The notes below the pieces were generated by a model, which was not told the DNA's origin, made no database searches, and saw only the letters and a list, made by a program, of their open reading frames with translations. A program made the position numbers and the translations under genes. Shown here piece by piece: positions 13,227-60,876 of a DNA stretch of 64,000 bases; the first letter of the stretch is position 1, and each line of letters begins with the position of its first letter. Source of the DNA: a bacterium (GTDB lineage Bacteria > Babelota > Babeliae > Babelales > RVW-14); the NCBI GenBank assembly GCA_016699045.1, contig CP064957.1, positions 729,784-793,783 of the forward strand, written 5' to 3'.

Positions 13227-13253
13227 AAATCTCAATTTTTAAATGGAAGCATC

Positions 13254-14129: not shown

Positions 14130-14646
14130 TTGCTCACGCGCATTTTTAAAAAAATTCTTGGCAATATGCGTCATTACCTTTTTTGCAGCATGCCTTCCTA
14201 GGCGTCAAATTTCGCGCGATTCACATGTTCCACTATTTATTCAAATGCCGCTCAGTAAATTTGTTTTTCGCGATGTCTCAAGTATTATTTACAACGCACT
14301 AACCGACCACTGCGCACGCGTTGGCTATCATCTTGTTACAAAGCCACAGGACGGCTATACCTTGCATATCGAAGTTAAAGACCTGTCATCATTAAGAAAA
14401 TTTGTCTCTCCAGATATCTTACTTTTTCATACAACGGTTCAATTAGAATTGGTATGTTCGCTGTATGATTTTACTCACAAACTCGTTCAACAAAAAACAT
14501 TTCGTTTTTCGACCTTGATATCTAAAGCAAGAAATCCTATTCTTAATAGTAGTTTCTCAACTTTTGAATATAAACAATTAATAAACCAAGCAGCGCCAAA
14601 AATTGAACGCTACTTTAGGCGATTTCTGAAAAAAGATGGATTTTAA
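14107..14646 (+). CDS. Small lipoprotein, LptE-like (LPS-assembly lipoprotein candidate)
   Basis: Signal peptide plus lipobox-like FFAAC. Its size and position immediately upstream of a holA-like gene mirror the E. coli lptE-holA arrangement. Start chosen at ATG 14107 (ORF track gives 14092). Sequence similarity to LptE is only weak pattern-level. Confidence 0.35.
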   Translation: MLSNKRASCSRAFLKKFLAICVITFFAACLPRRQISRDSHVPLFIQMPLSKFVFRDVSSIIYNALTDHCARVGYHLVTKPQDGYTLHIEVKDLSSLRKFVSPDILLFHTTVQLELVCSLYDFTHKLVQQKTFRFSTLISKARNPILNSSFSTFEYKQLINQAAPKIERYFRRFLKKDGF

Positions 14647-16942: not shown

Positions 16943-18283
16943 TTAAAAATGCAGTTCTACTCCACATGAAACCTGATGTGTTTTACAGATCGCGCTACCA
17001 CCTACAGGAATATCGTATGCAACATAAATAGTAGGATCCAAAGACCAATTTTGCAAAGCTTTTTTAGCATCATACAAAAATTGTAGCGTCACATAATGAG
17101 ATCGACGCCTTGTTTTATTTTCTTTGTCGGCAATATTTGCATTAATTGCCTCCTGTGTAATATCAACCGCAGGAGTACGACTCAAATAACTTGGCACTAT
17201 TTTATCTTTACGCACATCATGAAATTCATCCTGTCCATAACGCAAATAAGTATAACGACCTTGTACACTCAAACCGTCAGTCAAATTTTCAAGAATTAAG
17301 TACGGTGAAATTTTAAACGTAAATCCCGGATCTACTTGAATATCGCCAACCAAGGAACTGAAAATATCTGGTTCTTGATAAACAGCAATGCGTCTAACCA
17401 TCGTCTTTCTAAATTGTCCTAAAAAACCAACCATTAAACCAACTTTTACATCTTGCTTAAGTTCAAATTCTGGCACGAAGTCAAAGTAAAGACCCCAATG
17501 CCCATTGCCCATAAATGGTATCGACGTTGGCACATCGTTATCGGCAAAACCACCTGTCGGCACAATAAGTCCAAGACGACCATTAACATTAATGCTTCGC
17601 ATCAACAATTTGTGATCGGTATAAAAATTGTACATAGCAAAAAGATCAAGATCTCCCAAGCCACCCTTTTGCCAAGCATTTTGATTAAAACCAATCAAGT
17701 CATGCGTTTGTCGGCGAATTTTGTCCATGGTCACATTGAGGTCAGCTTGCTCTTTATCTGTCAATGCACGCGGCAAAGACTGTTCTTGAAATTTTTCACT
17801 TAAAAATTGATAACGACAAGTTGTATCCAAATGTATCACAGGCATCCAAAAACCAAATAACAAATGATGCTCATCAGATATTTTGTAAGGATACTTGTAT
17901 GAAAAAGTCACCCCGCGCGATCTAATACGCTGACTAACTTTGAAAGGAGCACTTACCAAGTCAAAACCAGGACCGTATTTAGCAATGAATGGATTAACAA
18001 AACCGGGATCACCAGCAGCTTGGTAGGAAGTTATAATTGCATTTAAATCATACTGCCCCCACAACTCAGGAATCCCTACTGTACTTCGTGTGCGACTAAA
18101 TGCCGTTGATGCAAAAGTCATAAAAAACGAAGTATCTAAAACCTGTTTATCATGATATCCATAATCTTCAGGTTTTTCGAAAAAGGGAAAATAACGATTT
18201 CCATTATGAGTTGCACAAAGGTTATCGATAATTGTCAGAAAAAAAGCTACTAAAAATAAAAAATGCTTTCTGTGAGGCATCAT
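16943..18283 (-). CDS. Hypothetical outer-membrane beta-barrel protein
   Basis: N-terminal signal peptide (FLFLVAFFLTIIDNLCA), alternating hydrophobic/aromatic strand-like pattern, and a C-terminal ...GVELHF ending in Phe, as in OMP beta-signals. No family recognised. Confidence 0.4.
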   Translation of the reverse strand: MMPHRKHFLFLVAFFLTIIDNLCATHNGNRYFPFFEKPEDYGYHDKQVLDTSFFMTFASTAFSRTRSTVGIPELWGQYDLNAIITSYQAAGDPGFVNPFIAKYGPGFDLVSAPFKVSQRIRSRGVTFSYKYPYKISDEHHLLFGFWMPVIHLDTTCRYQFLSEKFQEQSLPRALTDKEQADLNVTMDKIRRQTHDLIGFNQNAWQKGGLGDLDLFAMYNFYTDHKLLMRSINVNGRLGLIVPTGGFADNDVPTSIPFMGNGHWGLYFDFVPEFELKQDVKVGLMVGFLGQFRKTMVRRIAVYQEPDIFSSLVGDIQVDPGFTFKISPYLILENLTDGLSVQGRYTYLRYGQDEFHDVRKDKIVPSYLSRTPAVDITQEAINANIADKENKTRRRSHYVTLQFLYDAKKALQNWSLDPTIYVAYDIPVGGSAICKTHQVSCGVELHF

Positions 18284-23881: not shown

Positions 23882-23907
23882 CGTAGTCTAAAAGAGGATA
23901 TTTGGCT

Positions 23908-38698: not shown

Positions 38699-39433
38699 TT
38701 ACGCTTCAGCGCCACCCTCTTCAACCACTTCCTCTTCTTCGCCCTCTTGAGCGGGCTCTTCTGCTTGATTGGCGACAACTTGCTCTGCTGGTTCTTCTTC
38801 AGTCAATTCTTCTTCTACAGCTGGCTCTTGAGCTTCAGCAATTTCTGGACTTGCTTCTTCTTGCTGCTCTGCACCTTCGCTTACATCAACCGTTTCTTCT
38901 TGAGCAACTGACTCTTCTGCCACTTCAGCTTCTGCTACATCTTCTTCGAACTCTTCTTCAACTTCTTCAGCGACTGCCGCTGCTGGTTGAGCAACAACAG
39001 GCATGACTGCCGGCGCAACCACTTGCTTGGCAGGTGCAGAAACAACAGTCTTAGCAACAACCGGCATAGCGGCAGCTACAGCTTTTGCTGGCTTAGCCGC
39101 TGCTGGTTTTACAACAGAAGCGACCACAGGTTTTGCGACGGGTGCTGCAACAACAGAAGTATTCGCTTGTTTCAATTTTGCTGGATATAACTCACCAAAA
39201 CGTTTTAATGCAGCAGTTGCATCTTGATAATATCGCGCCAACGTACTCCAGTCTGTCCATTCTACAACAGCCAAAAATCTTAGTAACTCATCTTTTGAAT
39301 CTTTGACGTGCTCGACAACGCCTTGACCAATCTCATTTGGTTGCTGGCTCGATAAGTCTCGAACATCAGTACCGTAACACTGAAAACCCGTCACTAAAAA
39401 TAAATAAAAAAAACTCGCAACACGAATCTTCAT
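38699..39433 (-). CDS. Secreted low-complexity protein (Ala/Val/Pro/Lys-rich middle, Glu-rich tail)
   Basis: Signal peptide MKIRVASFFYLFLVTGFQCYG, a folded-looking ~90-aa N-domain, then AKPV/VAAP-type repeats and an EEVEEEFEEDVAEAE... tail. Confidence 0.6.
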   Translation of the reverse strand: MKIRVASFFYLFLVTGFQCYGTDVRDLSSQQPNEIGQGVVEHVKDSKDELLRFLAVVEWTDWSTLARYYQDATAALKRFGELYPAKLKQANTSVVAAPVAKPVVASVVKPAAAKPAKAVAAAMPVVAKTVVSAPAKQVVAPAVMPVVAQPAAAVAEEVEEEFEEDVAEAEVAEESVAQEETVDVSEGAEQQEEASPEIAEAQEPAVEEELTEEEPAEQVVANQAEEPAQEGEEEEVVEEGGAEA

Positions 39434-39676: not shown

Positions 39677-41956
39677 ATGAAGAATTACTTTAGTAAGATC
39701 TTTTGCATTGCTTTATTAATAACAATCATCATTCCAAAAAATATTTTTTGTATTCTTGATTTTGCCAATCGCGACACTAACTTAATCATTAATCCTACTG
39801 CCGGAACTTCGCGCATAATGTTAGGCAGTCTTACCGGAATAACCGGCTGGACACAAGACTCAATTATTGTTTCTTATGGCAACAACGCCCCTTCCGCATG
39901 GACAGAAACATATACCGCTGGTGTTCAAATTGGTACTGGTCGACGCAAGGCACCAAGTAACATGATTTACAACAATAGTAATGCCATCGTAAGTCTTCAA
40001 AGATTCGTAAGAACTGACAGTAACGCCATGACGTACCTTGTCCGTATCAACAGTAACGCCATCAACGGCCTTTACCCACTTGTTAAGCAAAATAGTAACA
40101 CTATCAGACGCTATTCTACTCTCGTTAAACAAAACAGTAATGCGATGAATTCTCTTAGTCTCTCAACACTTGCCACCCTTTTGAGAACGACCAGTAATTT
40201 AATTAGTGTCATCACGCCGCTTGTAAAACAAAATAGTAATGCTATCAATGCACTTAATCTCACAACACTTACAACACTTGTAAGAAATTCAAGTAACTTA
40301 ATCAATGTTTTAACGCCACTCGTTAAACAAAACAGTAGTACCATCAATCATTACTCAATACTCGTTAAACAAAATAGTAATGCCCTTGTAAGCTTGAAAG
40401 ACCTTGGAAGAAACACCAGCAATGCACTTGTCAGTCTTCAAACATTTGTGAGAACCGATAGTAATGCCCTGACAAATCTCCTAGTACTGGTCAGAACAAC
40501 TAGCAACACAATAAACTCATCTGATTCTACTCTTGCGCCACTTCTCAGGCAAACCAGTAATTTAATTAATGTTATCACGCCACTCGTCAAACAAAATAGT
40601 AATGCCATTGTAAACTTGAAAAACTTTGTAAGAACTACAAGCAATGCTCTCGTCAACCTTGAAACATTCGTAAGAACTGATAGTAATGCGCTAACCAATC
40701 TTGCTACGCTTGTCAGAACAAGCAGTAATGCATTTATTTACAACACCAGAACCACCAGCAACGCTTTACTCAGTCTTCAAACATTTGTCAGAACTGATAG
40801 TAACGCCATAACAAATCTCTTGGTACTCGTCAGAACAACTAGCAACACAATAAACTCATCTGACTCTACTCTTGCACCACTTCTCAGACAAACCAGTAAC
40901 TTAATCAACGTTTTAACGCCACTTGTCAAACAAAATAGTAATGCCATCAATCGCGCTTGCCCACTTATTAAACAAAATAGTAATGCTATTGTTGCTCTTG
41001 AACGGTTAGCTCATATCTTCCTGAACAATTCAAACTTTGTAGCCACAACTACTATCTGCGCTCTCAATTACTATAAAGCTGGATTCACTGTTGCCGCTGG
41101 CAAAACCCTGATACTAAACGATCCTCTACCAATAAGCGGTAAAATTAATCTGAACAATACCGGCATACTATCATTTGGTAGCGATGTCTATTTTGGTGCA
41201 AATGTTTATTTTACCAACGGCGGTTTACTGCAAGGCAATGGTCATTCCTTAATTTTAACTGGGAGTTTAACTATCCCTGCAAATAAAACTGTTCGCATTG
41301 ATAGCAATACTATTATCGATGGTCAAGGTAATGATATTTTTCTTGATAACAATGCAAAATTTGCCGTTTCAGCAGGCGTCACGTTTACACTCAGAAACGT
41401 TAAACTTAAAAATTTGTCAGGCATCCAAATAGATCTAGAAGGAGCAGGCACAGCGGCGCTTGCGCTTGCAGATTCAGCTATTTTCCTTGATCACAATTTC
41501 CATTTTGCCGATGGAAAATTATTTGTTCATGAAGATGTTCATATCTGCGGTACCAACAAGTTTATATACGAATCATTATACCCATTGTATATAACTTCAA
41601 ACTCAGCACTCATTTGTAATCCGGCTTCAACGTTCAGATATATTCCTGGCGGCGGTACGAGCAGCACAGACCGAACATTGATGCGTTTTGCTGACACTAC
41701 ATCATTCTTTTATCTTGATCAGGCAACATTTGAAGCCCCTGTAAACGGCGTACAAATTTTAAGAGGCACTATGGCTTTTGATAACAAATGTACCATCATC
41801 AATTTGTTAGCTGATGGTGTAACACCAAACATCACACGCACCAACGCCGTAACGATTGGCGATGGCACAACAAGTGACAATGATGCCACCTTGCATGTCT
41901 TCAGCGGCGCCCACCTTGAAGTACAGGGTTACTTGGATTACAATAACGCAAACTAG
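39677..41956 (+). CDS. Secreted repeat protein: ~25 x 14-residue SN-repeats followed by a beta-helix-like C-terminal domain
   Basis: 759 aa with an N-terminal hydrophobic signal/anchor. Residues ~101-447 are SNAxxxLxxxVRTx / LVKQNSNAI units. The C-terminus is rich in short G/N/T-containing strands (LILTGSLTIPANKTVRIDSNTIIDGQGNDIFLDNN...). Confidence 0.7.
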   Translation: MKNYFSKIFCIALLITIIIPKNIFCILDFANRDTNLIINPTAGTSRIMLGSLTGITGWTQDSIIVSYGNNAPSAWTETYTAGVQIGTGRRKAPSNMIYNNSNAIVSLQRFVRTDSNAMTYLVRINSNAINGLYPLVKQNSNTIRRYSTLVKQNSNAMNSLSLSTLATLLRTTSNLISVITPLVKQNSNAINALNLTTLTTLVRNSSNLINVLTPLVKQNSSTINHYSILVKQNSNALVSLKDLGRNTSNALVSLQTFVRTDSNALTNLLVLVRTTSNTINSSDSTLAPLLRQTSNLINVITPLVKQNSNAIVNLKNFVRTTSNALVNLETFVRTDSNALTNLATLVRTSSNAFIYNTRTTSNALLSLQTFVRTDSNAITNLLVLVRTTSNTINSSDSTLAPLLRQTSNLINVLTPLVKQNSNAINRACPLIKQNSNAIVALERLAHIFLNNSNFVATTTICALNYYKAGFTVAAGKTLILNDPLPISGKINLNNTGILSFGSDVYFGANVYFTNGGLLQGNGHSLILTGSLTIPANKTVRIDSNTIIDGQGNDIFLDNNAKFAVSAGVTFTLRNVKLKNLSGIQIDLEGAGTAALALADSAIFLDHNFHFADGKLFVHEDVHICGTNKFIYESLYPLYITSNSALICNPASTFRYIPGGGTSSTDRTLMRFADTTSFFYLDQATFEAPVNGVQILRGTMAFDNKCTIINLLADGVTPNITRTNAVTIGDGTTSDNDATLHVFSGAHLEVQGYLDYNNAN
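39977..41020 (+). repeat. Intragenic tandem 42-bp (14-codon) repeat array, including a ~195-bp duplication (40414-40608 / 40753-40947)
   Basis: Repeated ...caaaatagtaatgc... / ...agaac[ta]gatagtaa[tc]gcc... units. The two 195-bp segments align at an offset of 339 bp with only scattered mismatches. Confidence 0.85.
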
Positions 41957-43311: not shown

Positions 43312-44535
43312 TTGTTCAAAAACAGTACAAACAAATTAACAAAACTAACCTTCATGCTGACCAATGCCATCAATATTCTTTTTCGTATCGCGATCCCTTG
43401 CACCACGCTTGCTCTTGCATGGTACAGCCTCATTATAAAACCACGCCAGACCCTAAAACCAAATTTTTTGTTTTTCTTAATGGTAAGCTTGATAAGTGGT
43501 ATTTTTTTACAATCATGGTTCGCTCTTCCCTTGCCGCTGGTTGCGCTTGGTATCATTGCCAGCTCAATTGTCACACTATGCGTACAAGACATCCCACCCC
43601 TTGCATTATTAATGCCCGTTTTTTGTTTGGTAGGGGCATTTACATTTCAATATCAAAAAAATCATGCCGCCATGTTGCTCACATGTTACGGCAATCAACC
43701 AATAACGCTGTACGGCACCATCAGTAATAAAGAAGAATGTACCGGCATTTTTAAAGAACAATGGCGCTTAAGCGTTTCCGATCTTGAACTGCATAATGAA
43801 AAACAATCGACCTCATTTAATGTTTTGTGTTACAGCAAAAAAATTACTGATTTGTTACCAAGCGACCAAATAATTCTTCATAATGTTATACTTAAAACAT
43901 CGCACACAGCCTCAATGAGCGACAAGCCAACCTTTGCTGATTATCTCATGAAAGAAGATGCGCTCTCTTCGCTTTTTATCGATCATAAAACTTCGTACAC
44001 CCTGCAAAGTAGACCAATCTGGTCTTTTAATCGCTGGCTGTGGACTAAAAAAATGAATCTCTACCACGCCTGCAAACAAAAACTTTCGCACATCACGTTT
44101 ACGTATTTTTCGTTAATTTTTTTGGGCAACAAGTATTTTGCAAAATATGATTCACTGCGCGCCTTATTTAATCAGTGGGGCCTCGCACACTTTTTGGCAC
44201 GCTCTGGCTTACACATTGTACTTTTCATTTTTATGTGGACATTTTTACTGAACTTAATTCCGCTACCGCTGCAATGGAAACGAATTATCTTGCTATGCTG
44301 CTGTTTTTGTTATTGCATGCTCAGTTGGATTAGTATTTCTTTTATTCGCGCATTTCTTGTTTTTATACTCACACAACTGGGCGCCCTTTTAGCACGACCA
44401 ACACATTTTTTACATTTGCTTACTATTGCCTGCTTGCTCATTTTGTTGTTTAATCCGATACAACTTTTTTTTCTTGATTTCCAATTAACCTTTGGGCTAA
44501 CCTTTACCTTAGCGTTGCTTGCCCACACAATCTAG
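43312..44535 (+). CDS. ComEC/Rec2-family membrane protein (competence domain only)
   Basis: Polytopic membrane protein with FNQWGLAHFLARSGLHIVLFIF (cf. ComEC G..HLLAISGLH). No C-terminal metallo-beta-lactamase domain. Start codon uncertain. Confidence 0.55.
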   Translation: MFKNSTNKLTKLTFMLTNAINILFRIAIPCTTLALAWYSLIIKPRQTLKPNFLFFLMVSLISGIFLQSWFALPLPLVALGIIASSIVTLCVQDIPPLALLMPVFCLVGAFTFQYQKNHAAMLLTCYGNQPITLYGTISNKEECTGIFKEQWRLSVSDLELHNEKQSTSFNVLCYSKKITDLLPSDQIILHNVILKTSHTASMSDKPTFADYLMKEDALSSLFIDHKTSYTLQSRPIWSFNRWLWTKKMNLYHACKQKLSHITFTYFSLIFLGNKYFAKYDSLRALFNQWGLAHFLARSGLHIVLFIFMWTFLLNLIPLPLQWKRIILLCCCFCYCMLSWISISFIRAFLVFILTQLGALLARPTHFLHLLTIACLLILLFNPIQLFFLDFQLTFGLTFTLALLAHTI

Positions 44536-44581
44536 CTCTTCTTTTATGGCAAAAATTCTTGTCGTGGTTACCAGGATATCT

Positions 44582-46087
44582 ATGAAAACAAGAATAGATT
44601 CCACCATAAAAAAACTGTTTCTGCTTTTAGCTTTTTTAGTCATACCATCTGGCTGCACCCCCCAAACAACAACATTCAGTCTTATTCATCATTATCCTTA
44701 TTTAACTGCACTCAACACCTGGATCTGCAATCATATGCATGCTCTCATCCCACCAAGCATTATTACCAAAACAACAAAATCAAATGATGAAATTTTGCAG
44801 GAAACAAAAAAAATAAAAGATTGGAATATCATTGTTTATATGGCAGCCAACAACAATCTCCACATGTTTAGTATTAAAAATTTACAACAAATGATTCATA
44901 TTGGCTCAAACGAGCGCATTAATATTATTGTCCAGCTTGATGGCTATCGGATGGAAGATATCAGCAGATTTTATCTTGAAAAAGATAATCCAATCTTAAT
45001 TGATTCTTTTAATCATACCCAAGCTACCATTAGCGGCACCAGACAAAGCTTAGAAGAATTTGTAACCTGGGCAATCCAAACATACCCAGCCAAACACCAA
45101 GCACTTATTTTATGGAATCATGGCTCTGGTATTAAAGATCCTCGGCTGTGGGAAAAACGAATCATTGCTCATCGCGATGATTTTTTTTTCTTCAATCACC
45201 AGTTATGTCTTTTAGAACTCAATCGTCATCTTCTCGATAATAATTATGAAGATCAAAGCAATCGTGGCATTGCTTTTAATGACACCTTTGAAACATATAT
45301 TACCAACCAAGAACTAACCGAAACACTTGATACCTTAAGCACTAACATTCTCAATAATAAAAAAATTGATCTCTTATTTTTTGATGCCTGCCACATGGCC
45401 ATGATTGAAATTGGATCACAAATCAAAAGCGCTGTTTGTTATATGGTTGGCTCTGAAGAAATTGAGCCAGGCAACGGACATAATTATATGTACGCGCTAG
45501 AACCTTTTTTACACAAAAATCTGTCCCCATCAGAATTTGCCTGCCACTTAGTACATGCATACGAACAGGAATATATAAATTTTAATGCTGACTATACGCA
45601 ATCGGCCATTCATTTAGAATCTTATGAGCCACTCGAAGAACTGATGCAAAAAATCACATCCAACCTAAATTTTTTACTACAAAAAGAATCTACTATCATT
45701 ACTCAATTTATTCGATCTATCAGATTTAGTAGACGATATACCACCGAATTTGGCGACCCTGATTACATTGATTTTTGTTTGTTTTTTCAAAATTTAGAAA
45801 AAAAATTAATCTCATTACTGGGGAATGAAATAATTGCCAACATCACCATGACAACAATTGTCAAAACAATAGAACTTATTAATCAGTGCTTAGAGATTGC
45901 ACTCAAAAAAACCATTATCAAAAACACTTCTGGCTTTAACCTGCCGTATGCCCAAGGCCTTGCTATCTACTTTCCAAGACGATCAATAGACTCATATTAT
46001 CGCACTACCATTTTTGATCAAAAAACCCAGTGGTCAACTTTTTTAACAACATTCGCTCTCAATCTACAAAAATTAGGTGAAAGTTAA
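44582..46087 (+). CDS. Clostripain-like cysteine peptidase (family C11), possible lipoprotein, paralog 1
   Basis: WNIIVYMAANNNL, catalytic-His context LILWNHGSGI, catalytic-Cys context LLFFDACHMAMIE. Signal peptide ending IPSGC. ATG 44582 preferred over the ORF-track start at 44519. Confidence 0.7.
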   Translation: MKTRIDSTIKKLFLLLAFLVIPSGCTPQTTTFSLIHHYPYLTALNTWICNHMHALIPPSIITKTTKSNDEILQETKKIKDWNIIVYMAANNNLHMFSIKNLQQMIHIGSNERINIIVQLDGYRMEDISRFYLEKDNPILIDSFNHTQATISGTRQSLEEFVTWAIQTYPAKHQALILWNHGSGIKDPRLWEKRIIAHRDDFFFFNHQLCLLELNRHLLDNNYEDQSNRGIAFNDTFETYITNQELTETLDTLSTNILNNKKIDLLFFDACHMAMIEIGSQIKSAVCYMVGSEEIEPGNGHNYMYALEPFLHKNLSPSEFACHLVHAYEQEYINFNADYTQSAIHLESYEPLEELMQKITSNLNFLLQKESTIITQFIRSIRFSRRYTTEFGDPDYIDFCLFFQNLEKKLISLLGNEIIANITMTTIVKTIELINQCLEIALKKTIIKNTSGFNLPYAQGLAIYFPRRSIDSYYRTTIFDQKTQWSTFLTTFALNLQKLGES

Positions 46088-47485: not shown

Positions 47486-48901
47486 ATGAAGAAGTCATAT
47501 GTTTTTTTATGCATGCTGCTAGCAGCTTATTCATCAGAAGCAAAAACAGAAGTATTGAACGCACCACAAGACTCACCAAGTTTTACCGAAGGAAATGTAT
47601 CACCAGCTTCACGCGCACGCAAAGACTGGAATTTTATGGTCTACATGGCCGCCAACAATAACTTGCACACGTTTGCCATTGCCAATCTCATGCAAATGAT
47701 CTCTGTTGGCTCAACGCCTGATCTTAATATTTTGGTTCAATTGGATGAATACGGTAAGAGAGAAGTGAGTCGCTATTACATTGAAAAAAACAATCCCATC
47801 ACCGTTGCAACTTCTGATCACACACAAATTTCAACAAGTGGCACCAAGCAAAGTCTGTATGAATTTATGAAATGGAGCATTCAAAAGTTCCCCGCCAACA
47901 ATCATGCTATTGTTCTATGGAACCATGGATCCGGCATTAAAGACCCACACATTTGGGGCCGCACGTTAATGAAAAATCGCGATCAACTTTTTGCCTTCAA
48001 TGACAAAACAGGACTTCTCGAATTAAATCGTCATATCGCACGCTACCATCTGGACAAGTACGAAGAAGAACAACGATTTATTTCCTACACTTATGAAATC
48101 TTAAAAAGACGTGGCATTGCATTTAATGATACCTATGAAGAATATTTAACCAACCAAGACCTTACGATGGTTCTTGAAAAAGTTTCAAAAGAACTTCTTG
48201 GAAAAAAAATAGATCTTTTATTGATGGATGCCTGTCACATGGCCATGGTCGAAGTTGGTTCACAAGTAAAAAGTGCCGTTAATTACATGGCAGCATCAGA
48301 AGAAATAGAACCAGGCCCAGGATACAACTACTCGTTTCTTCTTGAACCATTCACGCATAACACACTGTCGCCACAAGAGTTTGCTTGCCAGGCGGTTAAA
48401 GCATATGCCCAACATTATAAAGGCATCAATGCGGATTTTACACAATCAGCTATCAATTTAAATGAGTTTGAAAAACTAGAAAAAAATATCAAAGACATCA
48501 CACTATTGATGACAAATGTTATTGACACTGAAACATCAATTGACTTTAAAGCGCTCTTGCAATCCATTCGCAAAAATAGACGCCATACCACCAGTTTTTG
48601 CGATTATGACTATATAGATTTTTGTCACTTTTATAAAAGCTTAAATGAAATAATTGCTATAAAATTACCAGACACAAAAGGTTCTACGCGCGAAAAACTT
48701 ATGAACATTCGTTTACTTGCTCTGCAAGGTTTAAGCATGATGCAAAATTATATTCTTATGAATGCGACAGGCATTAACTTGCCAAATGCTTTTGGTTTGT
48801 CATTTTACTTTCCAACGCGCCGCATGGACGATACCTACTTTAAAACAATTTTTGATCAACAAACAAAATGGTCTGAAATTTTACGACGTTATTTAAGCTA
48901 A
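47486..48901 (+). CDS. Clostripain-like cysteine peptidase (family C11), secreted, paralog 2
   Basis: AAGGAG SD and a signal peptide. WNFMVYMAANNNL, VLWNHGSGI, LLLMDACHMAMVE. Collinear with paralog 1. Confidence 0.7.
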   Translation: MKKSYVFLCMLLAAYSSEAKTEVLNAPQDSPSFTEGNVSPASRARKDWNFMVYMAANNNLHTFAIANLMQMISVGSTPDLNILVQLDEYGKREVSRYYIEKNNPITVATSDHTQISTSGTKQSLYEFMKWSIQKFPANNHAIVLWNHGSGIKDPHIWGRTLMKNRDQLFAFNDKTGLLELNRHIARYHLDKYEEEQRFISYTYEILKRRGIAFNDTYEEYLTNQDLTMVLEKVSKELLGKKIDLLLMDACHMAMVEVGSQVKSAVNYMAASEEIEPGPGYNYSFLLEPFTHNTLSPQEFACQAVKAYAQHYKGINADFTQSAINLNEFEKLEKNIKDITLLMTNVIDTETSIDFKALLQSIRKNRRHTTSFCDYDYIDFCHFYKSLNEIIAIKLPDTKGSTREKLMNIRLLALQGLSMMQNYILMNATGINLPNAFGLSFYFPTRRMDDTYFKTIFDQQTKWSEILRRYLS

Positions 48902-48960: not shown

Positions 48961-48985
48961 AACTTTAATACTTTTGGTCAAAAAA

Positions 48986-49564
48986 ATGCACATCATCAAG
49001 AAACAAGCAGTCCTCAACGCTCTTTATCAAAAATATGCTAACTGCCAAGCATGTCCCCTTGCCACCATGGGCCGCACCCAAGTTGTCTTTGGTGTTGGCA
49101 ACCCGGACGCACACTTAATGTTTATTGGCGAGGCGCCTGGCTTTAATGAAGACCTAAAAGGCGAGCCTTTTATCGGCCGCGCCGGCCAACTGCTTACCAA
49201 AATTATTGAAGCAATGGACCTCTCTCGCCAAAAAGTTTATATCTCAAATGTTGTTAAATGCCGCCCACCAAACAACCGCACACCAACCACGCTTGAGCGC
49301 GAAACGTGTAAAAATTTACTGTTGGTAGCGCAAATTGCAATCATTCAGCCAAAAATAATTTGCACGCTCGGCTCCCCATCAACCAAAGCATTGCTCGGCG
49401 ATGACGTTCAAATTTCACTGGTACGCGGAAAATTTTTTGAATACCAAGGCATTCCCGTCATGCCAACGTTCCATCCCGCCTACTTACTCCGCAATCCCGT
49501 AGAAAAGCGAACGGTGTGGGAAGACATGAAAAAAATTATGGAAAAGCTCAAAGAGTTTGAATAG
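48986..49564 (+). CDS. Uracil-DNA glycosylase, family 4
   Basis: CQACPL...VVFGVGNPDAHLMFIGEAPGFNEDLKGEPFIGRAGQLL and HPAYLLRNP. ATG 48986 preferred over TTG 48974. Confidence 0.85.
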   Translation: MHIIKKQAVLNALYQKYANCQACPLATMGRTQVVFGVGNPDAHLMFIGEAPGFNEDLKGEPFIGRAGQLLTKIIEAMDLSRQKVYISNVVKCRPPNNRTPTTLERETCKNLLLVAQIAIIQPKIICTLGSPSTKALLGDDVQISLVRGKFFEYQGIPVMPTFHPAYLLRNPVEKRTVWEDMKKIMEKLKEFE

Positions 49565-51456: not shown

Positions 51457-51606
51457 AAAACAGCCCCCTCATCATAAAACCCTACCCCGAATCTCACCAA
51501 AATCTTCTTTTATGATTTTACGATAATTAACAAATAAAAATAAACAATAGCGTAAATATTAGACAATAATAAAGCACTTACCGAGCTTTTCATTGACAAA
51601 TAGAGA

Positions 51607-51650
51607 TGTTGATAACTTGTTGATAACTTGTTGATAACTTGTTGATAACT
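51607..51650 (-). repeat. 4 x 11-bp perfect tandem repeat TGTTGATAACT (= 4 DnaA-box-like TTATCAACA on minus strand)
   Basis: Read directly: units at 51607, 51618, 51629 and 51640. A fifth TGTTGATAA lies at 51697-51705. Confidence 0.95.
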
Positions 51651-51829
51651 TTTATCTATTTTCCCAAAACATCGAGCCAGTCGACAAAAATAGCATTGTT
51701 GATAATTTTAATCGACCAGCACGCGTCAAAGTGCATGTATCTATATCAAAACGTAGAATAGATAAGTACTTTAAAAACCAATGCCAGAAAACATCGACTC
51801 ATAGGCACTATTCAGTGGCGACAAATAAG

Positions 51830-51860
51830 TTATCAACAAGTTATCAACAAGTTATCAACA
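51830..51860 (+). repeat. 3 x TTATCAACA at 11-bp spacing, inverted relative to the 51607-51650 array
   Basis: Boxes at 51830-51838, 51841-51849 and 51852-51860 (AGTTATCAACA x3). Confidence 0.95.
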
Positions 51861-51919
51861 TATTTTAAATCATAGAATTTAGTAGAATTCTAAAGGCTTT
51901 TTAGCAAAAATACTCTGAG

Positions 51920-51928
51920 TTATCCACA
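51920..51928 (+). promoter_or_regulatory. Perfect consensus DnaA box TTATCCACA
   Basis: gagTTATCCACAaaaa read directly. Followed at ~51945-51995 by a nearly pure A/T tract (ctatctaatatataatattaagatatatataaaaaattta). Confidence 0.7.
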
Positions 51929-52192
51929 AAAAATGGGCTGCTCATTATTACTATCTAATATATAATATTAAGATATATATAAAAAATTTACTTATGAACA
52001 AAGCCCCTCTTCTCATTTTTCCCAAAAATAAAAATTATTATGTTTCAAAAGAGTTATATTCTTTGTTCTTCACATTTAGGGGATTTTGCTTTAGACTGGG
52101 TTCTAAGTTGTCGATAGTGCATAACTTTCATATTAAACCAGTTTAAGTACTCAGCAATCAAAATTGCTATATCTACCTTAACAATCGAGGGC

Positions 52193-53293
52193 ATGGAAAC
52201 CGTGAATCTTGCAGATGTAATAGAAAATCTCGTTGAAGAGCGTGGTCTTGATCGGGATCAAATAGCCGCCATCGTTTGCGACGGTATTCAAACGGCATAT
52301 ACAAAAAAATATCCCTACGTTGATGTTTTGGTTACTTATAACAAAAAAACCGGTCTCGTAGAAATTTTGGCTGAAAAAGAAGTTGTAAATACGGTTGAAG
52401 ACCCTGATACCGAAATAACACTTCGTAGAGCCAAAATGGTTGATGCAAAAGCTGAACTTGGCTCACTTATTCATGTTCCATTCGAACAGGAAATTGGTCG
52501 CGTTGAAATTATTGCGGCCAAGCAAATCATTTCTGCAAAGATTCGGGAACTTGAGCATATGGCGGTTTACAATGAGTTTAAAGACCGTAAGGGCGCTATT
52601 ATTATTGGTGCTGTGCATAAACGTGAACGCGCAGGCATGGTAATAAAGATTGGCGAAATTATGGGCTTGTTGCCTAATGAAAACATTCCTATTGGCGAAA
52701 CAATTAAGGTAGGGCACCAAATTCGCGTTCTTGTACAAGACGTGCTTGTTGCGGCCAGGGGCGATTACCAAATTATTCTCGATCGCGCTTCGGCAGATTT
52801 TGTTAAGGGCCTTATCGAGCTTGAAATTCCTGAAGTTTATGAAGGAATTGTCGAAATAAGGAAAATTGTTCGAACTGCCGGTTATAAAACCAAGGCAATC
52901 GTTGCTTCGACTAGCAAAGACATTGATCCTGTGGGAACGTGTGTTGGCGTTGGTGGTGCGCGTATTAAGCCTATTTTGCGGGAGCTCGGGCAAGAAAAAG
53001 TTGATTTGATTGAGGCAACCGACGATCTTGACGATTTAGTAAAAGATAGTCTTAAGCCTGCAGATATCGACAAAGTAGAGGTAAATGAGCAATCAAGTGT
53101 AGCAATGGTTTGGCTGGCTCAAGATCAGCGATCGCTGGCCATTGGAAAACTTGGACAAAATATAACCTTGGCGTCTAAGTTGACTGGTTTGGAAATTCAC
53201 CTGCAAGATATACAACCGCCGCGTGGCCACGAAGAAGGCTTTATTGACCGACCTTTTGAGCACAAAGACGAGAATGACGGCACGGAAGACTAA
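52193..53293 (+). CDS. nusA: Transcription termination/antitermination factor NusA (no C-terminal AR repeats)
   Basis: 366 aa with S1 and two KH domains (VASTSKDIDPVGTCVGVGGARIKPI, AIGKLGQNITLASKLTG). nusA-infB synteny. Confidence 0.93.
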   Translation: METVNLADVIENLVEERGLDRDQIAAIVCDGIQTAYTKKYPYVDVLVTYNKKTGLVEILAEKEVVNTVEDPDTEITLRRAKMVDAKAELGSLIHVPFEQEIGRVEIIAAKQIISAKIRELEHMAVYNEFKDRKGAIIIGAVHKRERAGMVIKIGEIMGLLPNENIPIGETIKVGHQIRVLVQDVLVAARGDYQIILDRASADFVKGLIELEIPEVYEGIVEIRKIVRTAGYKTKAIVASTSKDIDPVGTCVGVGGARIKPILRELGQEKVDLIEATDDLDDLVKDSLKPADIDKVEVNEQSSVAMVWLAQDQRSLAIGKLGQNITLASKLTGLEIHLQDIQPPRGHEEGFIDRPFEHKDENDGTED

Positions 53294-53365
53294 TTGTTGC
53301 CCGAGACAGCACTTTTTTGTTGCCGGTAAAAATTTAATGTTAAAAAAAGATAGGTGAGCAGTAAC

Positions 53366-54553
53366 ATGCGTGTATATGAGATTGCAAAAGAACTCGATAT
53401 TTCAAGCAAGGAACTGGTAGTCTTTTTGAAAAATGAGGGATCGCCTGTCTCAAATCACATGTCGATGCTAACAGAAAAAGACATTGAGCTTGTCAAAAAG
53501 ACTTTTGGGAAAAAGACGCCAAAGCTTGCCGAAGTAAAAATTGTGGCTGAAAAAAAGCCAACACCTGAAAAAAAATCGACTTCTGTCAAAAAAACTCTTA
53601 CTCAGAAAAAAGAACCTGATTTAAAGGTTGCAGAGCCAGAAAAGAAGACGATAGTACACAGCAAAACGGTCGAAAAAAAACAACAACCAGGCGAAACGGC
53701 GCAAAAAAAAGACGTTGAAATAGCTACGAGGAATGTTGCTTCTGCACAACCAAAACAAGAAACAACCTCTTCTAATCAGATAAAGGGTCCCACAATCGCT
53801 GCACCAATTAATCAAAAAACACCTGTTCGTTCTTTAGTTCCTGAAGAAGAGGACGTAAGATTTTTAGATATTTCGACCAAGCAAGCTACAAGTAGTATGA
53901 CGTTTGATCGCTCTAAAGGATCTCGTGGCGTTAACACTCAACAAAACACAGGCTCACGGTCGAGTAGACGCCAACATCACCGTCGTCGTGCGGCGCGAGC
54001 TGCTGTTGAACAACAGCAACATAGTGCACCGATTACTGACGTTGTGTTGTCAAAAAGCTTGCCTCTTTTCGAAGTTGCGCAATTGATGGGTAAGTCTGAT
54101 GGCGAGCTTATCTTGGCCTTGTTAAAGCGTGGCATGGTCTGCAATCGCAACAATGTTCTTTCAACAGACGTTATCGAATCTCTGGCTGCACAATTTGGTA
54201 TTCAAACATCCGTTGCAGCGCCAGCTCCCGACAAAAATGTCGAAAGCATTCAAGCAAAAATTAAACAAACTGAAGATGGCATTCAGCGTTGGCCGGTTGT
54301 TGTGGTGATGGGACACGTTGACCACGGCAAGACAACGTTATTAGACTTTATTCGTAAAATGAATGTTGCGGCTCGTGAAAAAGGTGGCATTACGCAACAC
54401 ATTAGTGCTTATGAAGTTAATAGCAAGCATGGCAAGATTGTGTTTTTGGACACGCCTGGGCACGAAGCTTTTTCTTATTTGAGACAAAAAGGCGCTCGAA
54501 TTACTGATATTGCTGTTTTGGTGGTAGCAGCTGATGACGGCGTTAAGTTATAA
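53366..54553 (+). CDS. infB: Translation initiation factor IF-2, N-terminal part (N-domain, G1-G3), ending at an in-frame TAA
   Basis: [18 protein letters not shown]..., G1 [13 protein letters not shown]3 DTPGH, then AADDGVKL followed by TAA at 54551-54553. Confidence 0.85.
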
Positions 54554-54562
54554 ACAGTTGAA

Positions 54563-55777
54563 GTGATTAAATATGCACGTCAAACCAACGTAACTATTAT
54601 TATTGCTATTAACAAGATGGACAAGGTTGCGCCAGCAGCGGTGGAAACTGTTAAGCGTCAACTTGCGCAGCATGACTTGTTGGTAGAAGATTGGGGCGGC
54701 AATATTATTTGCGTGCCGATCTCTGGTAAAACAGGACAGGGTGTTGCCGAGCTTCTTGAAATGATTGTTCTTCAATCACAAATGATGGAACTTAAAGCAT
54801 TCCCTGACAGACCTGCGCAAGCGTTTGTTTTGGAGTCGCGTTTAGAAAAGGGCTTTGGTCCAGTTGCTTCTGTTATTTGTACCGAAGGTACGCTTAAACA
54901 AGGCGATTATTTTGTGTGCGGCAACAGCAGTGGCAAGATTCGTTTGTTGGTAGATTCCGGCGGCCAAAAAGTAAAAGAAGCTGGGCCTTCAATGCCAGTA
55001 CAAGTTGTTGGTTTTAATGAATTTGCTTCATCGGGCGAATGGCTGCAAGTTGTTTCTGCGCATGATTACAACCAAGCTCGTGCTGGTAAAACCGTTCAAG
55101 CTCCGTTGTCTACAACCGCACAAGCAATGCAACAAGAACTTTCTCTTGCTTCTCGTGAAGTGTCTCAGCGATCAATGAATCTTTTAATCAAAGTTGATAC
55201 GCAAGGTTCTAAAGAAGCGCTGATGGGCTTGTTGAAAAAATTAACTGATCTTTCTCGAGAAGTTCAATGCCCGCTGAACATAGTTTATGTTGGCGTTGGC
55301 GATATTTCTGAAAGTGACGTTGACTTGGCCGCTAATACTCATTCGATGATTATTGGTTTCCACATAAAAGCTGAAAAAAATTCACAGATGGCAGCCAAAG
55401 AACAAGTCGTTGAAATTAAACTTTTCGATGTGATTTATCATTTGGTTGAATATTTGCAAGAACAAATTGAGAAAAAGCGTATTGTTGAAGCAGTATGGAA
55501 ACAAGTTGGTGAAGCAGTTGTGCGTAAAGTTTTTGTAACAAAAACAGGAACAATTGCTGGTTGCTACTTGCGCGAAGGGCTTTGTTCTCGCGACAACAAG
55601 TTCCAATGTATTCGTGGCTCCAAGGTCGTAGCTGAAGGAAAAATTAATAGCTTGCAGCGCGATCGTAAAGTAGTTAAAGAAGTGCATGCGGGTTATGAAT
55701 TTGCCTTTATTGCGGACTCTTTCCAAGATTGGCAAGAAGATGACGTGGTCTTGTATTTGGCCAAAGTAAAAGGGTAA
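54563..55777 (+). CDS. infB: Translation initiation factor IF-2, C-terminal part (G4 onward), same frame as the upstream part
   Basis: Frame is continuous from 54554. G4 AINKMDK, domain II and C-terminal domains (LIKVDTQGSKEAL, VGVGDISESDV, IIGFHIK). GTG 54563 is only the first possible restart. Confidence 0.8.
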   Translation: MIKYARQTNVTIIIAINKMDKVAPAAVETVKRQLAQHDLLVEDWGGNIICVPISGKTGQGVAELLEMIVLQSQMMELKAFPDRPAQAFVLESRLEKGFGPVASVICTEGTLKQGDYFVCGNSSGKIRLLVDSGGQKVKEAGPSMPVQVVGFNEFASSGEWLQVVSAHDYNQARAGKTVQAPLSTTAQAMQQELSLASREVSQRSMNLLIKVDTQGSKEALMGLLKKLTDLSREVQCPLNIVYVGVGDISESDVDLAANTHSMIIGFHIKAEKNSQMAAKEQVVEIKLFDVIYHLVEYLQEQIEKKRIVEAVWKQVGEAVVRKVFVTKTGTIAGCYLREGLCSRDNKFQCIRGSKVVAEGKINSLQRDRKVVKEVHAGYEFAFIADSFQDWQEDDVVLYLAKVKG

Positions 55778-55797
55778 TACCTTTTTGGTTGTAGCTT

Positions 55798-56925
55798 ATG
55801 CGCACCATGCTTGAACGTATTTGGGATAAAACAAGCTCGCTCCAGCAGTTAACGTTTTTTGAAAAAATACTCTTTTGTAGTTTATGCCTGCTCGAACCTT
55901 TATATCGGGCAGGTTTTTTTATTGTCAAGTTTTATCGTAAAAAAACGGGTGGTACAAGGGTGCCTTTTTCAGTGTTGTCGATTGGAAATCTTTCGGTTGG
56001 TGGGACTGGCAAATCAGTAGTAGTTTCTTTTTTGGGAAATCTTTTAGCAAGCCGAGCGCCAGCAATTGTGCTTCGTGGTTATGGTGGGCGTGCTGCGCAC
56101 GACGGTACTAATATACTGGTCAGCGATGGAAAAAATATTTTATGTGATGTGGCAACAAGTGGCGACGAAGCATGTATGTTTGCACAATCGTTTTGTGGAC
56201 CGGTGGTTGTTGGTGCAGACCGCTTGCGCTCGTGCCAACTGCTTGAAGCGTGGTCACGCAAAACAGATAATGCTGTAAAGACCATTATTCTTGATGATGC
56301 GTACCAAAATTACAAAATTTTCAAAAACGTTGAAATTTTGCTGTTAGATGCGCGCAAACCATTCGATAATGGACATACGTTGCCGGCTGGCAGATTGCGC
56401 GAAAAAAACTATCGTCGTGCGCATTTTTTTTTCCTCATGCATGCAGACCAGGTTTCTCCAGCTTTTTTACAATTTATCACCACGAATTTATTGATTGGCG
56501 TGGATGAAAAATTTATTTTTGCAGGCAAGCATGCGTATGCTGGTATTTTTTTACATAATGCTGGTGTTGATCAAACGAAAAATCTTCGCTATCGATTGTG
56601 CATGATTGTTGCTGGTATTGGTTCGCCGAGTGGCTTTGAACGCACGGTTGCTGATGCGGATCTTATTTCTTGTGCTTCATTTATTTTTCCAGATCATCAT
56701 GATTATTCATGTGCTGATCTTGAAAAAATTGAACAGTATGCGCAAGAAAAAGATTGTTTTATTGCGGTGACGACTGCAAAAGATTGGGTTAAGTTGCAGC
56801 CTATCGTGCAAAAAATATCCAGTAAAATTCAGTGGTATGTTATTCGCGTTACGTTTGATTTTTTGCAAACGCATGATCATCAGCGTTTTTTCACTCTTTT
56901 AACAAATCTTTTAGACCATTCTTAA
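55798..56925 (+). CDS. lpxK: Tetraacyldisaccharide 4'-kinase
   Basis: VLSIGNLSVGGTGKSVVV P-loop context and ILDDAYQ motif, 375 aa. Confidence 0.85.
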   Translation: MRTMLERIWDKTSSLQQLTFFEKILFCSLCLLEPLYRAGFFIVKFYRKKTGGTRVPFSVLSIGNLSVGGTGKSVVVSFLGNLLASRAPAIVLRGYGGRAAHDGTNILVSDGKNILCDVATSGDEACMFAQSFCGPVVVGADRLRSCQLLEAWSRKTDNAVKTIILDDAYQNYKIFKNVEILLLDARKPFDNGHTLPAGRLREKNYRRAHFFFLMHADQVSPAFLQFITTNLLIGVDEKFIFAGKHAYAGIFLHNAGVDQTKNLRYRLCMIVAGIGSPSGFERTVADADLISCASFIFPDHHDYSCADLEKIEQYAQEKDCFIAVTTAKDWVKLQPIVQKISSKIQWYVIRVTFDFLQTHDHQRFFTLLTNLLDHS

Positions 56926-58108: not shown

Positions 58109-58951
58109 TTACACAAAACTCTTGAGCGTTGCTATTTCGTCAGCATATTTTTCAGGATTTGGTGTTTCAAGAACTTTTGGCACGTGTATCAATCGATCAT
58201 CGTGCATAATTTTTTTGAACGTAGTCAGTGGAATTTCTCCTTCGCCCAAACTTGCATGGCGATCCTTTTTTGAACCGCATGGCATTTTAGAATCGTTGAG
58301 ATGCAACGCTTTGAGGCGACGAATGCCAATGGTTTTACAAAAATCGTCCATCATAGTTTCATAACCGTGTGGCGTGCTGATATCATGACCAGCAGCAAAA
58401 ACATGGCACGTATCTAGACATACACCAATTCTGCTGTTGTCTTCAATCTGCTCAATAATACTTTTGAGGTGTGTAAAAGTGCCAATATTGGTCCCCTGCC
58501 CCGCCATGGTTTCCAACAAAATCATTGAGTCCCCAGGAACTCTGTCTAAGATTGTTTTTAAATTTTGAGTGATATGTGCAATACCAATTTCTTCACCAGC
58601 GCCGGTGTGTGAGCCTGGATGCAGTACTAAATAAGGAATCTCTAAATCTTGGCAACGTTGTAGTTCTTTAGTCAGCGACGTAACTGATTTATGACGAACA
58701 TCAGTATTGCTTGCCGCCAAATTAATTAAATAAGAACTATGGACCATGATTTTTGTAAGCCCTGATTCTTTTACCGCTGCTTTGAATGCGTCAATCTCAT
58801 CGTGCTTGAGCGCGGGCGCAAACCAGCTTCTGTTACTTTTGGTAAAAATTTGCATGGTAGTGCAGCCAATTTCAAGAGCACGTTCAGCTGATTTGTAAAG
58901 GCCGCCTGCTGCCGAAATATGAGCACCAATCAACGTTTTATTATGAGGCAT
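58109..58951 (-). CDS. nfo: Endonuclease IV
   Basis: IGAHISAAGGL, MQIFTKSNRSW, LVLHPGSH, CLDTCHVFAAG, LHLNDS. Confidence 0.93.
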   Translation of the reverse strand: MPHNKTLIGAHISAAGGLYKSAERALEIGCTTMQIFTKSNRSWFAPALKHDEIDAFKAAVKESGLTKIMVHSSYLINLAASNTDVRHKSVTSLTKELQRCQDLEIPYLVLHPGSHTGAGEEIGIAHITQNLKTILDRVPGDSMILLETMAGQGTNIGTFTHLKSIIEQIEDNSRIGVCLDTCHVFAAGHDISTPHGYETMMDDFCKTIGIRRLKALHLNDSKMPCGSKKDRHASLGEGEIPLTTFKKIMHDDRLIHVPKVLETPNPEKYADEIATLKSFV

Positions 58952-59061
58952 GGGAGTCCTTTCTGGTTATCAGATTTTTACCTTAAAATAATTATGCATG
59001 AGAAGTGTTGATTTTGCATTATACTATTTTTTTATTAATTATATATTTTAGGGGTTTGGTC

Positions 59062-60876
59062 ATGAATTATCACGGCAGATTAGCGGTAAAGAGTTTTTGT
59101 TTGGTGTTTGTTTTGTTGCCGGCATTAATGATGCCTTTTGCTTGCGTGGCAGATGATTCGATTATTACTTTTTTTGAGCAACGTGATCTAGAGCTTTCTG
59201 GGTCGCTTAATCAATCACATCGAGGTGTTGTTGCCAAGCTTGGTAACCCTCAAACAATGTTTGGGCGGGATTGTATTGCGCATTTTTTTACCAACCCCAC
59301 GGCGGATGTGAGAGTTATTGAAGAGCGTCAAATCGCCATTCAAGAACTCTTTGAGAATCAAGAACTTTTGCATAATGTAACGCATTTGTTAAAGCAGCTA
59401 AAAGCGTATCAATACGGTGTAGATTTTTTTTTACATAAAAGCCTCGACGTGGCCGCCGAAGAAATTTTGAAGACTTATTATTTTTCATTATCAATGATGC
59501 GTTCGTACAATGATAGTGCTTTGGCTTTAACATTGCGCGATATTTTTAAAAAATTTGGTTTATTTATGCCGGTGATAGAACATCTTCTTTTTCACTTTGC
59601 TATGGATTATATTTATCAGGTAATCGCTGAAGATAAAAAAACTGATGGGCATTGTCATCATCATGACCATCAGCATAAACACCACCATCATGGCTGCGAT
59701 GGGCACTCGTGTGTTATGGACCATCTTGAACCAGCAGAAGGTGCAAGTACAGCTGTTAAAGGTTTGTTTTTAACCTTAAAAATTGGGCATTTTGGTCTTC
59801 ATGCGATCAGTATTTATGAAATGATTAGTTATGTTAAAGCACAAGTTGCGGTACTTGATTATGTGCATGATCAAGTAATTGCCGTGCAACAGTGCTTTGC
59901 AACGGTTGAGAAGCTTTCTAGTTTAGTTCAACGCAATGAAGTTCTTGCGCGCGTTTTTCCCGATATGTCAATGTTATTAAAAGAGCATAAAATCATGCCA
60001 GAATTGAGTGAGTTGTTTGTTAGTGGTGCCTTTGAACTTGATGATGAGCTTGGTTTTTTTTCTACCGTTGGGCCAACGTTGCGAGCTTACCGGTTGCTGC
60101 GTGAACAGCGAGATTCTTTTAAAAATGTTTGGCAGGCAGTTGGGCAGCTTGATGCGTACGCAACTCTAGCGCAGGTGATGCGTGAACATCAACATGGTGA
60201 TGCGCGCATGAGTTTTGTGCGCTTCAAAAAAGATGCAACGACGCCTTCGTTGATTATGAAAGGCTTATGGAATATCATGCTCAATCCCGACATGGTTACA
60301 ACTAACGATGTTGAACTTGGTGTAAATAATGCGCCGACTATCATGGTGATTACTGGGCCCAATAAAGCGGGAAAATCGAGCACATTGAAAGCGCTGGGGT
60401 TGAATGTTATTTTAGCCCAATCGTTTGGGATTGTTTGTGCTCGTGATGTCGAAATGACACCATTTGATGCGCTTATGACATACATAACGGTGACTGATGA
60501 TATCACGTGCGATACATCGTTGATGGTGGCAGAGTTGGCGCGCGCAGACGGTTGTTTAAAAAAAATTCAAGAATTAGAGCCAAATAAGTTTGGTTGTATT
60601 TTAATTGATGATTCATTATTTAAAGGTACGACATTTCAAAAACGAGAAGAGTTGGCGTATCAATTTGTAGAAGCAGTAGGCAGACCAGGTAATACGTGCG
60701 GCATGGTAGCAACCCACACCATGGCGTTGACGCAGTTGGCGCAGGTTGCTCAACAGACATTTTTTAATGCTTACATTCCAACTGTGCTAGCGCTTGATGG
60801 TAATGTGACGAGCACATTTACCGTGGTGCCCGGTATCGCTAACCCTGACGATGTTTTAGCGCTTGTGCGTGCTTAG
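59062..60876 (+). CDS. MutS-related ATPase (domains III-V-like) with hydrophobic N-terminus and His/Cys-rich loop
   Basis: Walker A ITGPNKAGKSSTLKALG, Walker B ILIDDSLFKGT, ATHT. N-terminus LAVKSFCLVFVLLPALMMPFACVA. DGHCHHHDHQHKHHHHGCDGHSC at 59644-59712. ATG 59062 preferred over the ORF-track start at 59005. Confidence 0.65.
   Translation: MNYHGRLAVKSFCLVFVLLPALMMPFACVADDSIITFFEQRDLELSGSLNQSHRGVVAKLGNPQTMFGRDCIAHFFTNPTADVRVIEERQIAIQELFENQELLHNVTHLLKQLKAYQYGVDFFLHKSLDVAAEEILKTYYFSLSMMRSYNDSALALTLRDIFKKFGLFMPVIEHLLFHFAMDYIYQVIAEDKKTDGHCHHHDHQHKHHHHGCDGHSCVMDHLEPAEGASTAVKGLFLTLKIGHFGLHAISIYEMISYVKAQVAVLDYVHDQVIAVQQCFATVEKLSSLVQRNEVLARVFPDMSMLLKEHKIMPELSELFVSGAFELDDELGFFSTVGPTLRAYRLLREQRDSFKNVWQAVGQLDAYATLAQVMREHQHGDARMSFVRFKKDATTPSLIMKGLWNIMLNPDMVTTNDVELGVNNAPTIMVITGPNKAGKSSTLKALGLNVILAQSFGIVCARDVEMTPFDALMTYITVTDDITCDTSLMVAELARADGCLKKIQELEPNKFGCILIDDSLFKGTTFQKREELAYQFVEAVGRPGNTCGMVATHTMALTQLAQVAQQTFFNAYIPTVLALDGNVTSTFTVVPGIANPDDVLALVRA

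Follow-up and report, generated by a model that had tools for sequence, protein, structure and literature searches.

The gene infB, which encodes the translation initiation factor IF2, is interrupted by a single in-frame stop codon in the 64,000 bp stretch of DNA analysed here (the window; positions 729,784 to 793,783 of CP064957.1, assembly GCA_016699045.1). The window comes from the circular metagenome-assembled genome (MAG) AalE_18-Q3-R2-46_BAT3C.1_cln (CP064957, 1,451,127 bp), a member of the Dependentiae (Babeliales, f__RVW-14). The stop is explained by a ten-site, strand-switching cluster of C>T and G>A changes that separates the window from an otherwise identical contig, and it is the collateral damage of a single mutational event and not a feature of infB expression. 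The pattern is that of a 5'C-to-3'G single-switch cluster, which, by analogy with clusters described in yeast, would record the deamination of cytosines in single-stranded DNA, on one strand to the left of a break and on the other strand to its right. We give a probability of about 0.5 to the reading that this was an event in vivo and that a large share of the Aalborg East population, as sampled, would really have carried the allele. We are highly confident that neither programmed recoding nor a conserved split gene is involved, and any functional reading of the stop is very improbable.

The interrupted gene is a bona fide infB orthologue. The frame runs on the + strand from the ATG at 53366 to a TAA at 55775-55777 with a sole internal stop, and it lies directly downstream of nusA, in the conserved nusA-infB context, with lpxK as its downstream neighbour. 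Pfam assigns IF2_N and the first half of GTP_EFTU to the 5' half, and the remainder of GTP_EFTU, EF-G_D2 (domain II) and the IF-2 C1 domain to the 3' half; the G1, G3 and G4 motifs are all present. With the stop masked, solved structures of bacterial IF2 can be aligned over the full length of the region from the G domain to C2 (E = 2e-112), and the stop aligns with the Q of their AADDG[VI]MPQT segment, so that the G domain is split between G3 and G4. The gene departs from an ordinary infB solely in lacking an uninterrupted frame with DDGxxPQT, since the window reads DDGVKL*T at this point (DDGVKL*TVEVIKYARQTNVTIIIAINK, in which the asterisk is the stop). An earlier reading of the DNA, made from the sequence alone, had proposed that one frame is broken only at 54551-54553, that both halves are clean IF2, and that the TAA replaces a conserved Gln; translation of 53366-55777, the Pfam domains on each half and the structure alignment bear out all three, and the homologues and relatives described below have Gln at this position. 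In GenBank the gene appears under locus tag IPF37_03530 as two coding sequences (CDSs), QQR48611.1 and QQR48612.1. Coordinates of the gene, the cluster and the most closely related contigs are collected in Table 1.

Table 1. Features of the infB region and near-identical contigs, in window coordinates. L001 is the reference contig for the cluster; differences are counted relative to the window.
Feature	Coordinates	Strand	Description
nusA	52193..53293	+	conserved nusA-infB context; identical in L001 and L095
infB 5' part	53366..54553	+	395 codons plus TAA; IF2_N, linker, G1 GHVDHGKT, G3 DTPGH; GenBank QQR48611.1
Premature TAA	54551..54553	+	from CAA (Gln) via C>T at 54551
infB 3' part	54554..55777	+	407 codons; G4 NKMD, domain II, C1 (PF11987), C2
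GTG opening the downstream open reading frame	54563..54565	+	QQR48612.1, 404 aa; 10 nt past the stop
Whole mutation cluster	54548..54602		ten G:C>A:T transitions when compared with L001, which is otherwise identical
Left tract	54548..54572	+	C>T at 54548, 54549, 54551, 54564, 54572
Switch interval	54573..54576		separates the C>T sites from the G>A sites; putative break or strand-switch position
Right tract	54577..54602	-	G>A at 54577, 54584, 54587, 54588, 54602
L095	50340-54530		1 difference, no indel
L090	13818-18346		1 difference, no indel
L091	15304-18346		0 differences, no indel
L096	56786-60365		6 differences, scattered, mixed type, no indel

The origin of the stop is apparent from comparison with close relatives. 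A homology search recovers an uninterrupted 803-residue IF2 (P0001) that is 99% identical, as well as an intact Babeliales orthologue (P0002) at 83% identity. P0001 is encoded on contig L001 of the metagenome assembly GCA_020054605.1, which aligns with window positions 52088-56116 without a gap over 4,029 bp and differs at only ten sites, all of them within the cluster; the 3' part of infB is thus identical to its intact counterpart except within these limits. There are 10 differences in 55 bp and 0 in the remaining 3,974 bp, and the probability that ten uniformly placed differences would all fall in 55 bp is ~1e-15. The clustering is far beyond chance. Contig L002, which is 94% identical, has the L001 base at 10/10 cluster sites and L003, at 91%, has it at 9/10, so that the window allele is the derived one; all three contigs have CAA at the stop site. 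The site at which L003 differs is 54577, a silent GCG>GCA change that is also A in this 9%-diverged contig and is therefore a naturally polymorphic position, whose membership of the cluster is slightly less certain. Every relative examined lacks a split or a stop in infB, and the interruption is private to one assembly.

All ten changes are sorted by strand. In the left tract 5/6 of the top-strand C's are changed and none of the four G's, whereas in the right tract 5/7 of the G's are changed and none of the six C's; across the cluster, 10/13 eligible C/G positions are converted and 0/10 of the opposite-strand candidates. The left tract fits deamination of the top strand and the right tract fits deamination of the bottom strand. 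Given ten C/G hits in this span, a perfect 5'C-then-3'G sorting has a probability of ~0.005. The tracts extend ~25-31 nt per side, their limits being set by unconverted C's at or before 54541 and unconverted G's at or after 54605, and the converted sites reach the centre (54572 and 54577) without concentration at the ends. Conversion is found in GC (5/7), CC (2/2) and AC (3/6) contexts; neither tract holds a TC, the sequence motif of APOBEC3 and DddA. The mutated positions show no mirror symmetry. The ancestral switch point overlaps a GCGC/CGCG palindrome (54575-54579), but such sequences are over-represented, making up ~2% of the window, and a restriction-site explanation of the switch point is uninformative and was set aside.

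The changes fall without regard to the function of the protein. At the codon level they cause P>L and G>N (two hits each), Q>stop, A>V, H>Y, A>T and V>I, along with a silent A>A. In 118 homologues the Pro and the Gln at the stop-adjacent and stop positions are each present in 118/118, and the A, H, A and V positions are conserved in 98% (116), 86%, 89% and 97% (115), while the residues found in the window at the changed positions occur in 0 to 10 of the 118. Cluster changes that ignore function in this way are unselected. The sequence-only reading took the adjacent Met-Pro to be substituted along with the Gln, and this stands for the Pro, which has become Leu. It does not stand for the Met, as the motif in Dependentiae and Babeliales is DDG[VI]KPQT and the Lys, found in 82/118 homologues, is normal for the clade; beside the stop, only Pro>Leu is a substitution. 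That reading also argued from the intactness of both halves against an old pseudogene, and rightly so. Of the four options it left, sequence error and very recent inactivation survive, since the allele is private, its background identical and invariant residues are hit; readthrough or suppression and a split IF2 find no support, there being no relative with the stop, TAA being the main terminator and the GTG downstream arising from the cluster.

In the scenario that we favour, the DNA would have been broken or gapped near 54573-54576, exposing ~27 nt of the top strand on the left and ~27 nt of the bottom strand on the right as single-stranded 3' tails, a geometry that would be that of 5'-to-3' resection. 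Cytosines in the tails would then have been converted to uracil by an enzyme without marked sequence preference, for which the nearest known type may be an SsdA-like deaminase specific for single-stranded DNA (ssDNA), or alternatively by chemical damage of comparable effect. Deamination that occurs spontaneously is far too slow to have converted ~75% of the cytosines. Fill-in synthesis would have copied the uracils, fixing both sets of changes in one duplex, and the product would be a null infB allele with a stop at the invariant Gln and Leu in place of the invariant Pro. It may be speculated that wild-type copies could shelter such an allele, since the replication bodies typical of Dependentiae contain many genomes. 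Cultured members of the phylum form large replication bodies with delayed fission, which then split into cocci (PMC6561590), so mutant and wild-type genomes might share a cytoplasm.

The closest parallel comes from yeast, where clusters of the 5'C-to-3'G single-switch type mark double-strand breaks that have been resected 5'-3' in both directions while an ssDNA-specific deaminase was active (PMC6786661). In the yeast model the left tail takes its hits at C's of the top strand and the right tail at C's of the bottom strand, and resynthesis fixes both in one duplex (PMC6786661). The infB cluster resembles those induced by APOBEC3A or ssDNA-specific agents (Sakofsky et al. 2019, PMC6786661) in that its changes are closely spaced and confined to C/G, with one switch, C's 5' and G's 3', in a single haplotype with more than three mutations. 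It differs in that its tracts are ~27 nt and not kilobases in length, in that ~75% of eligible C's are converted, and in being a single case, known from assembly sequence, in an uncultured intracellular bacterium. A second comparison is with bacterial toxins. SsdA deaminates ssDNA with little context preference (PMC12494967), and the infB changes, like mutagenesis by SsdA or BaDTF2, are C>T through C>U without strong context; the mixed GC, CC and AC contexts, in tracts that offer no TC, would point to a context-independent deaminase such as SsdA, or to a chemical, sooner than to APOBEC3 or DddA. Unlike the toxin systems (SsdA, or DddA and BaDTF1 acting on double-stranded DNA), the window has no identified deaminase gene or delivery system. 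To our knowledge, toxin mutagenesis is described as scattered mutations and not as 55-bp single-switch clusters.

The main alternative, a serious possibility that we put somewhat short of an even chance, is that the cluster is a consensus artefact and that the real infB is intact, the haplotype having arisen from one or a few damaged or aberrant molecules that prevailed at a thin spot or from an error in assembly and polishing. CP064957 is 87.64% complete with 0% contamination according to CheckM (Singleton et al. 2021, Supplementary Data 3, PMC8012365), and was assembled at a low coverage of 10.9x Illumina and 10.6x Nanopore (PMC8012365) with an early Nanopore pipeline, in which CANU 1.8 was followed by Racon (Nanopore), medaka 0.6.5 twice and Racon (Illumina) (PMC8012365). 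The 0% contamination is a weak argument against a second infB in the genome, provided that PF11987 belongs to the CheckM marker set. An artefact would also account for the presence of the intact allele on an identical background in another assembly (L001) and for the restriction of the split proteins to the record of this MAG. The infB lesion further resembles the consensus-error pseudogenes of Nanopore MAGs, in that an essential gene is broken in a low-coverage long-read MAG and intact in short-read assemblies of the strain. Such errors are typically homopolymer indels or isolated substitutions at methylation motifs, whereas the infB cluster has ten transitions, a strand switch and no indel, and lies in a well-polished region. 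Filled-in 5' overhangs of one damaged fragment do give the same orientation of C>T 5' and G>A 3', as in the overhang damage of ancient DNA, and the ~55 bp extent is comparable.

Several observations are difficult to reconcile with an artefact. No base-calling or polishing error mode known to us produces ten transitions, every one of them G:C>A:T, that switch strand cleanly and are free of indels. Miscalls by Nanopore depend on the strand, and with reads that are kilobases long a strand bias cannot flip within 55 bp. Of the homopolymers of at least 6 bases in the 4 kb around the site, 18/18 (6-8 bases) agree in length with the short-read contig, which shows that Illumina polishing worked here and that a Nanopore-only error should have been reverted; this supports an origin in vivo. 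Damage in vitro varies from molecule to molecule, and ~11x coverage should outvote it. Ancient-DNA damage is likewise specific to a molecule and decays inward, whereas the infB conversions reach the centre, are not massed at fragment ends and sit in the assembly consensus.

Other points weigh against an event in vivo, in addition to the low coverage. When a gene is essential and single-copy, a null allele should not become the consensus of a natural population and is very improbable a priori, and shelter by polyploidy is speculative. The split proteins are known only from the NCBI record of CP064957, while the intact P0001 is also on record from Logan read assemblies. The tracts of ~27 nt per side are far below the kilobase scale of the yeast model, and a deaminase gene was not found in the window. 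UDG, Nfo and a MutS-like protein are encoded nearby and should remove uracils. Finally, the cluster is a single instance, with no second one in the 13.9 kb of the window that is covered by near-identical reference contigs or in the further regions for which references diverged by 2-8% are available. A fuller version of the favoured scenario would be an inherited kataegis-like shower, with a break 2.6 kb from the putative replication origin described below, ~27 nt of resection per side, near-complete deamination by a context-independent ssDNA deaminase (a toxin, a host factor or an endogenous enzyme) and persistence of the null infB through multi-genome complementation; taken as a whole we consider this chain unlikely.

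The near-identical contigs (3.0-4.5 kb each) show 0, 1, 1 and 6 scattered substitutions relative to the window, and other window-specific changes are spaced in multiples of three, as in ordinary codon-position divergence. One of the near-identical contigs, L095 (GCA_020049755.1, JAHZTO010080451.1), is a short-read contig from another metagenome that ends 18 nt before the first mutated site. This end could reflect a bubble between two alleles in the assembly graph, or merely low coverage, and is a weak hint at most; as evidence for two alleles it was rejected, since a bubble should stop at 54547 and not at 54530, and the assembly is fragmentary. A degenerate 75-nt pattern for either allele gives 0 hits in Joint Genome Institute (JGI) metagenomes, from which the strain is absent. 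Exact look-ups of the half-proteins, LpxK, the aldolase and Nfo return no record in the contig index, and a literature search on the accession numbers found nothing.

Programmed readthrough or suppression, in which UAA would be decoded (for instance as Gln) to give full-length IF2, might be suggested by the intact halves in one frame and by the position of the stop exactly at a Gln codon, but we regard it as highly improbable. The intactness of the halves follows from the recency of the lesion, and the stop is absent from L001, from the relatives diverged by 6-9% and from 118/118 homologues. TAA ends 35/47 genes in the window, infB included, no suppressor tRNA is present in the window (its only tRNA being tRNA-Val), and there is no Rfam element in the window beyond this tRNA and no significant local structure. 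A readthrough product would moreover still carry Leu for the invariant Pro and five further changes at conserved positions. A global reassignment of TAA was considered and rejected, as the window read with the standard code is 94% coding and has 47 normally closed open reading frames (ORFs), 35 of them ending in TAA, among which rpoB has 1,441 and rpoC 1,374 codons.

A genuinely split IF2, made as two reassembling polypeptides, is still less credible, notwithstanding the two GenBank CDSs and the GTG 10 nt after the stop. No relative is split, and the cut lies within the G domain, from G3 to G4. The GTG at 54563, which the sequence-only reading put forward as the first possible restart, fails as a restart codon because it owes its existence to the cluster (GCG>GTG at 54564), and a Shine-Dalgarno sequence is missing ahead of it, as had been noted before. 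Recoding or a conserved split would need to be shared by relatives or to have dedicated signals; neither holds, and both are rejected. A templated change, by gene conversion from a paralogous GTPase, quasi-palindrome correction or mutagenesis of the diversity-generating retroelement (DGR) type, can yield clustered substitutions but is the least probable of all, as neither derived half has a second copy in the window at 3 mismatches or fewer, no hairpin of significance forms and folding is poorer for the derived allele than for the ancestral one, DGRs mutate adenines whereas every change here is G:C>A:T, mirror symmetry is lacking among the mutated positions, and no reverse transcriptase was found among the annotated window ORFs.

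Among the features of the surrounding region, we note that the 737-bp, 32% GC spacer at 51457-52192 (core 51607-51928), between an NlpC/P60 gene (- strand) and nusA (+ strand), is probably oriC on sequence criteria, which would place the origin 2.6 kb upstream of the infB cluster. The spacer holds 9/20 of the DnaA-box-like matches in the window, namely four copies of TTATCAACA spaced by 11 bp on the - strand (51607-51648), a single match at 51697, a + strand array of three with the same 11-bp spacing (51830-51860) and, at 51920, a perfect TTATCCACA. The spacer coincides with a sharp flip in GC skew from ~-0.25 to +0.15; the dnaA gene is not adjacent. A second flip, from + to -, occurs at ~13000-14000 (near 13.5 kb), and the rpoBC and ribosomal-protein block at 1-13.5 kb has positive skew despite its location on the 'negative' side of the putative origin. 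This pattern suggests an inverted or translocated block containing rpoBC, and as the independent contigs L089 and L090 span the ~13.5-kb junction it is not a misassembly.

Repair genes lie within 6 kb of infB: a glycosylase of the uracil-DNA glycosylase (UDG) superfamily (48974-49564), endonuclease IV (Nfo; 58109-58951) and a MutS-domain protein (59005-60876). Genes for uracil excision and repair of abasic sites are thus present, which bears on how a dense deamination tract could have escaped repair. An ORF at 43312-44535 is ComEC-like and may represent a truncated comEC: its Pfam Competence match covers only 12-139 of 270 model positions and lies at the extreme C-terminal end of the ORF, which then breaks off. 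The ORF runs into the beginning of the neighbouring C11 peptidase gene. Paralogous clostripain-family (C11) peptidases at 44519-46087 and 47486-48901 flank a Kdo-transferase-like gene that is hypothetical in GenBank. A secretion or pilus cluster at 23902-33113 contains two GspD-like secretins (25231-28377, 1048 aa; 30621-33113, 830 aa) together with GspC-like (23902-25212) and PilM/GspL-like (28374-30074) genes. ORFs of 184, 325, 446, 244 and 759 aa have no Pfam match (14092-15613, 16943-18283, 38699-39433, 39677-41956), and the positions of these ORFs are conserved in the related contigs L089 and L090.

As a candidate for recoding or for a split gene, the infB stop is ordinary, and that reading is excluded. 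It provides a worked example of a trap, in which a 'closed, high-quality' MAG has an essential gene with an apparently intriguing in-frame stop that dissolves when set against a near-identical contig, and such lesions are taken over by GTDB-style references and protein databases. On the condition that it is real, the lesion can be placed among the strand-coordinated single-switch deamination clusters already known, with unusually short and dense tracts and a setting in an environmental bacterial genome. If the haplotype is real, it would show that single-switch deamination clusters can occur naturally in a bacterial genome and would be a direct footprint of resection length and ssDNA deaminase activity in an uncultivable intracellular parasite, and it would raise the question of how a null infB allele is carried.

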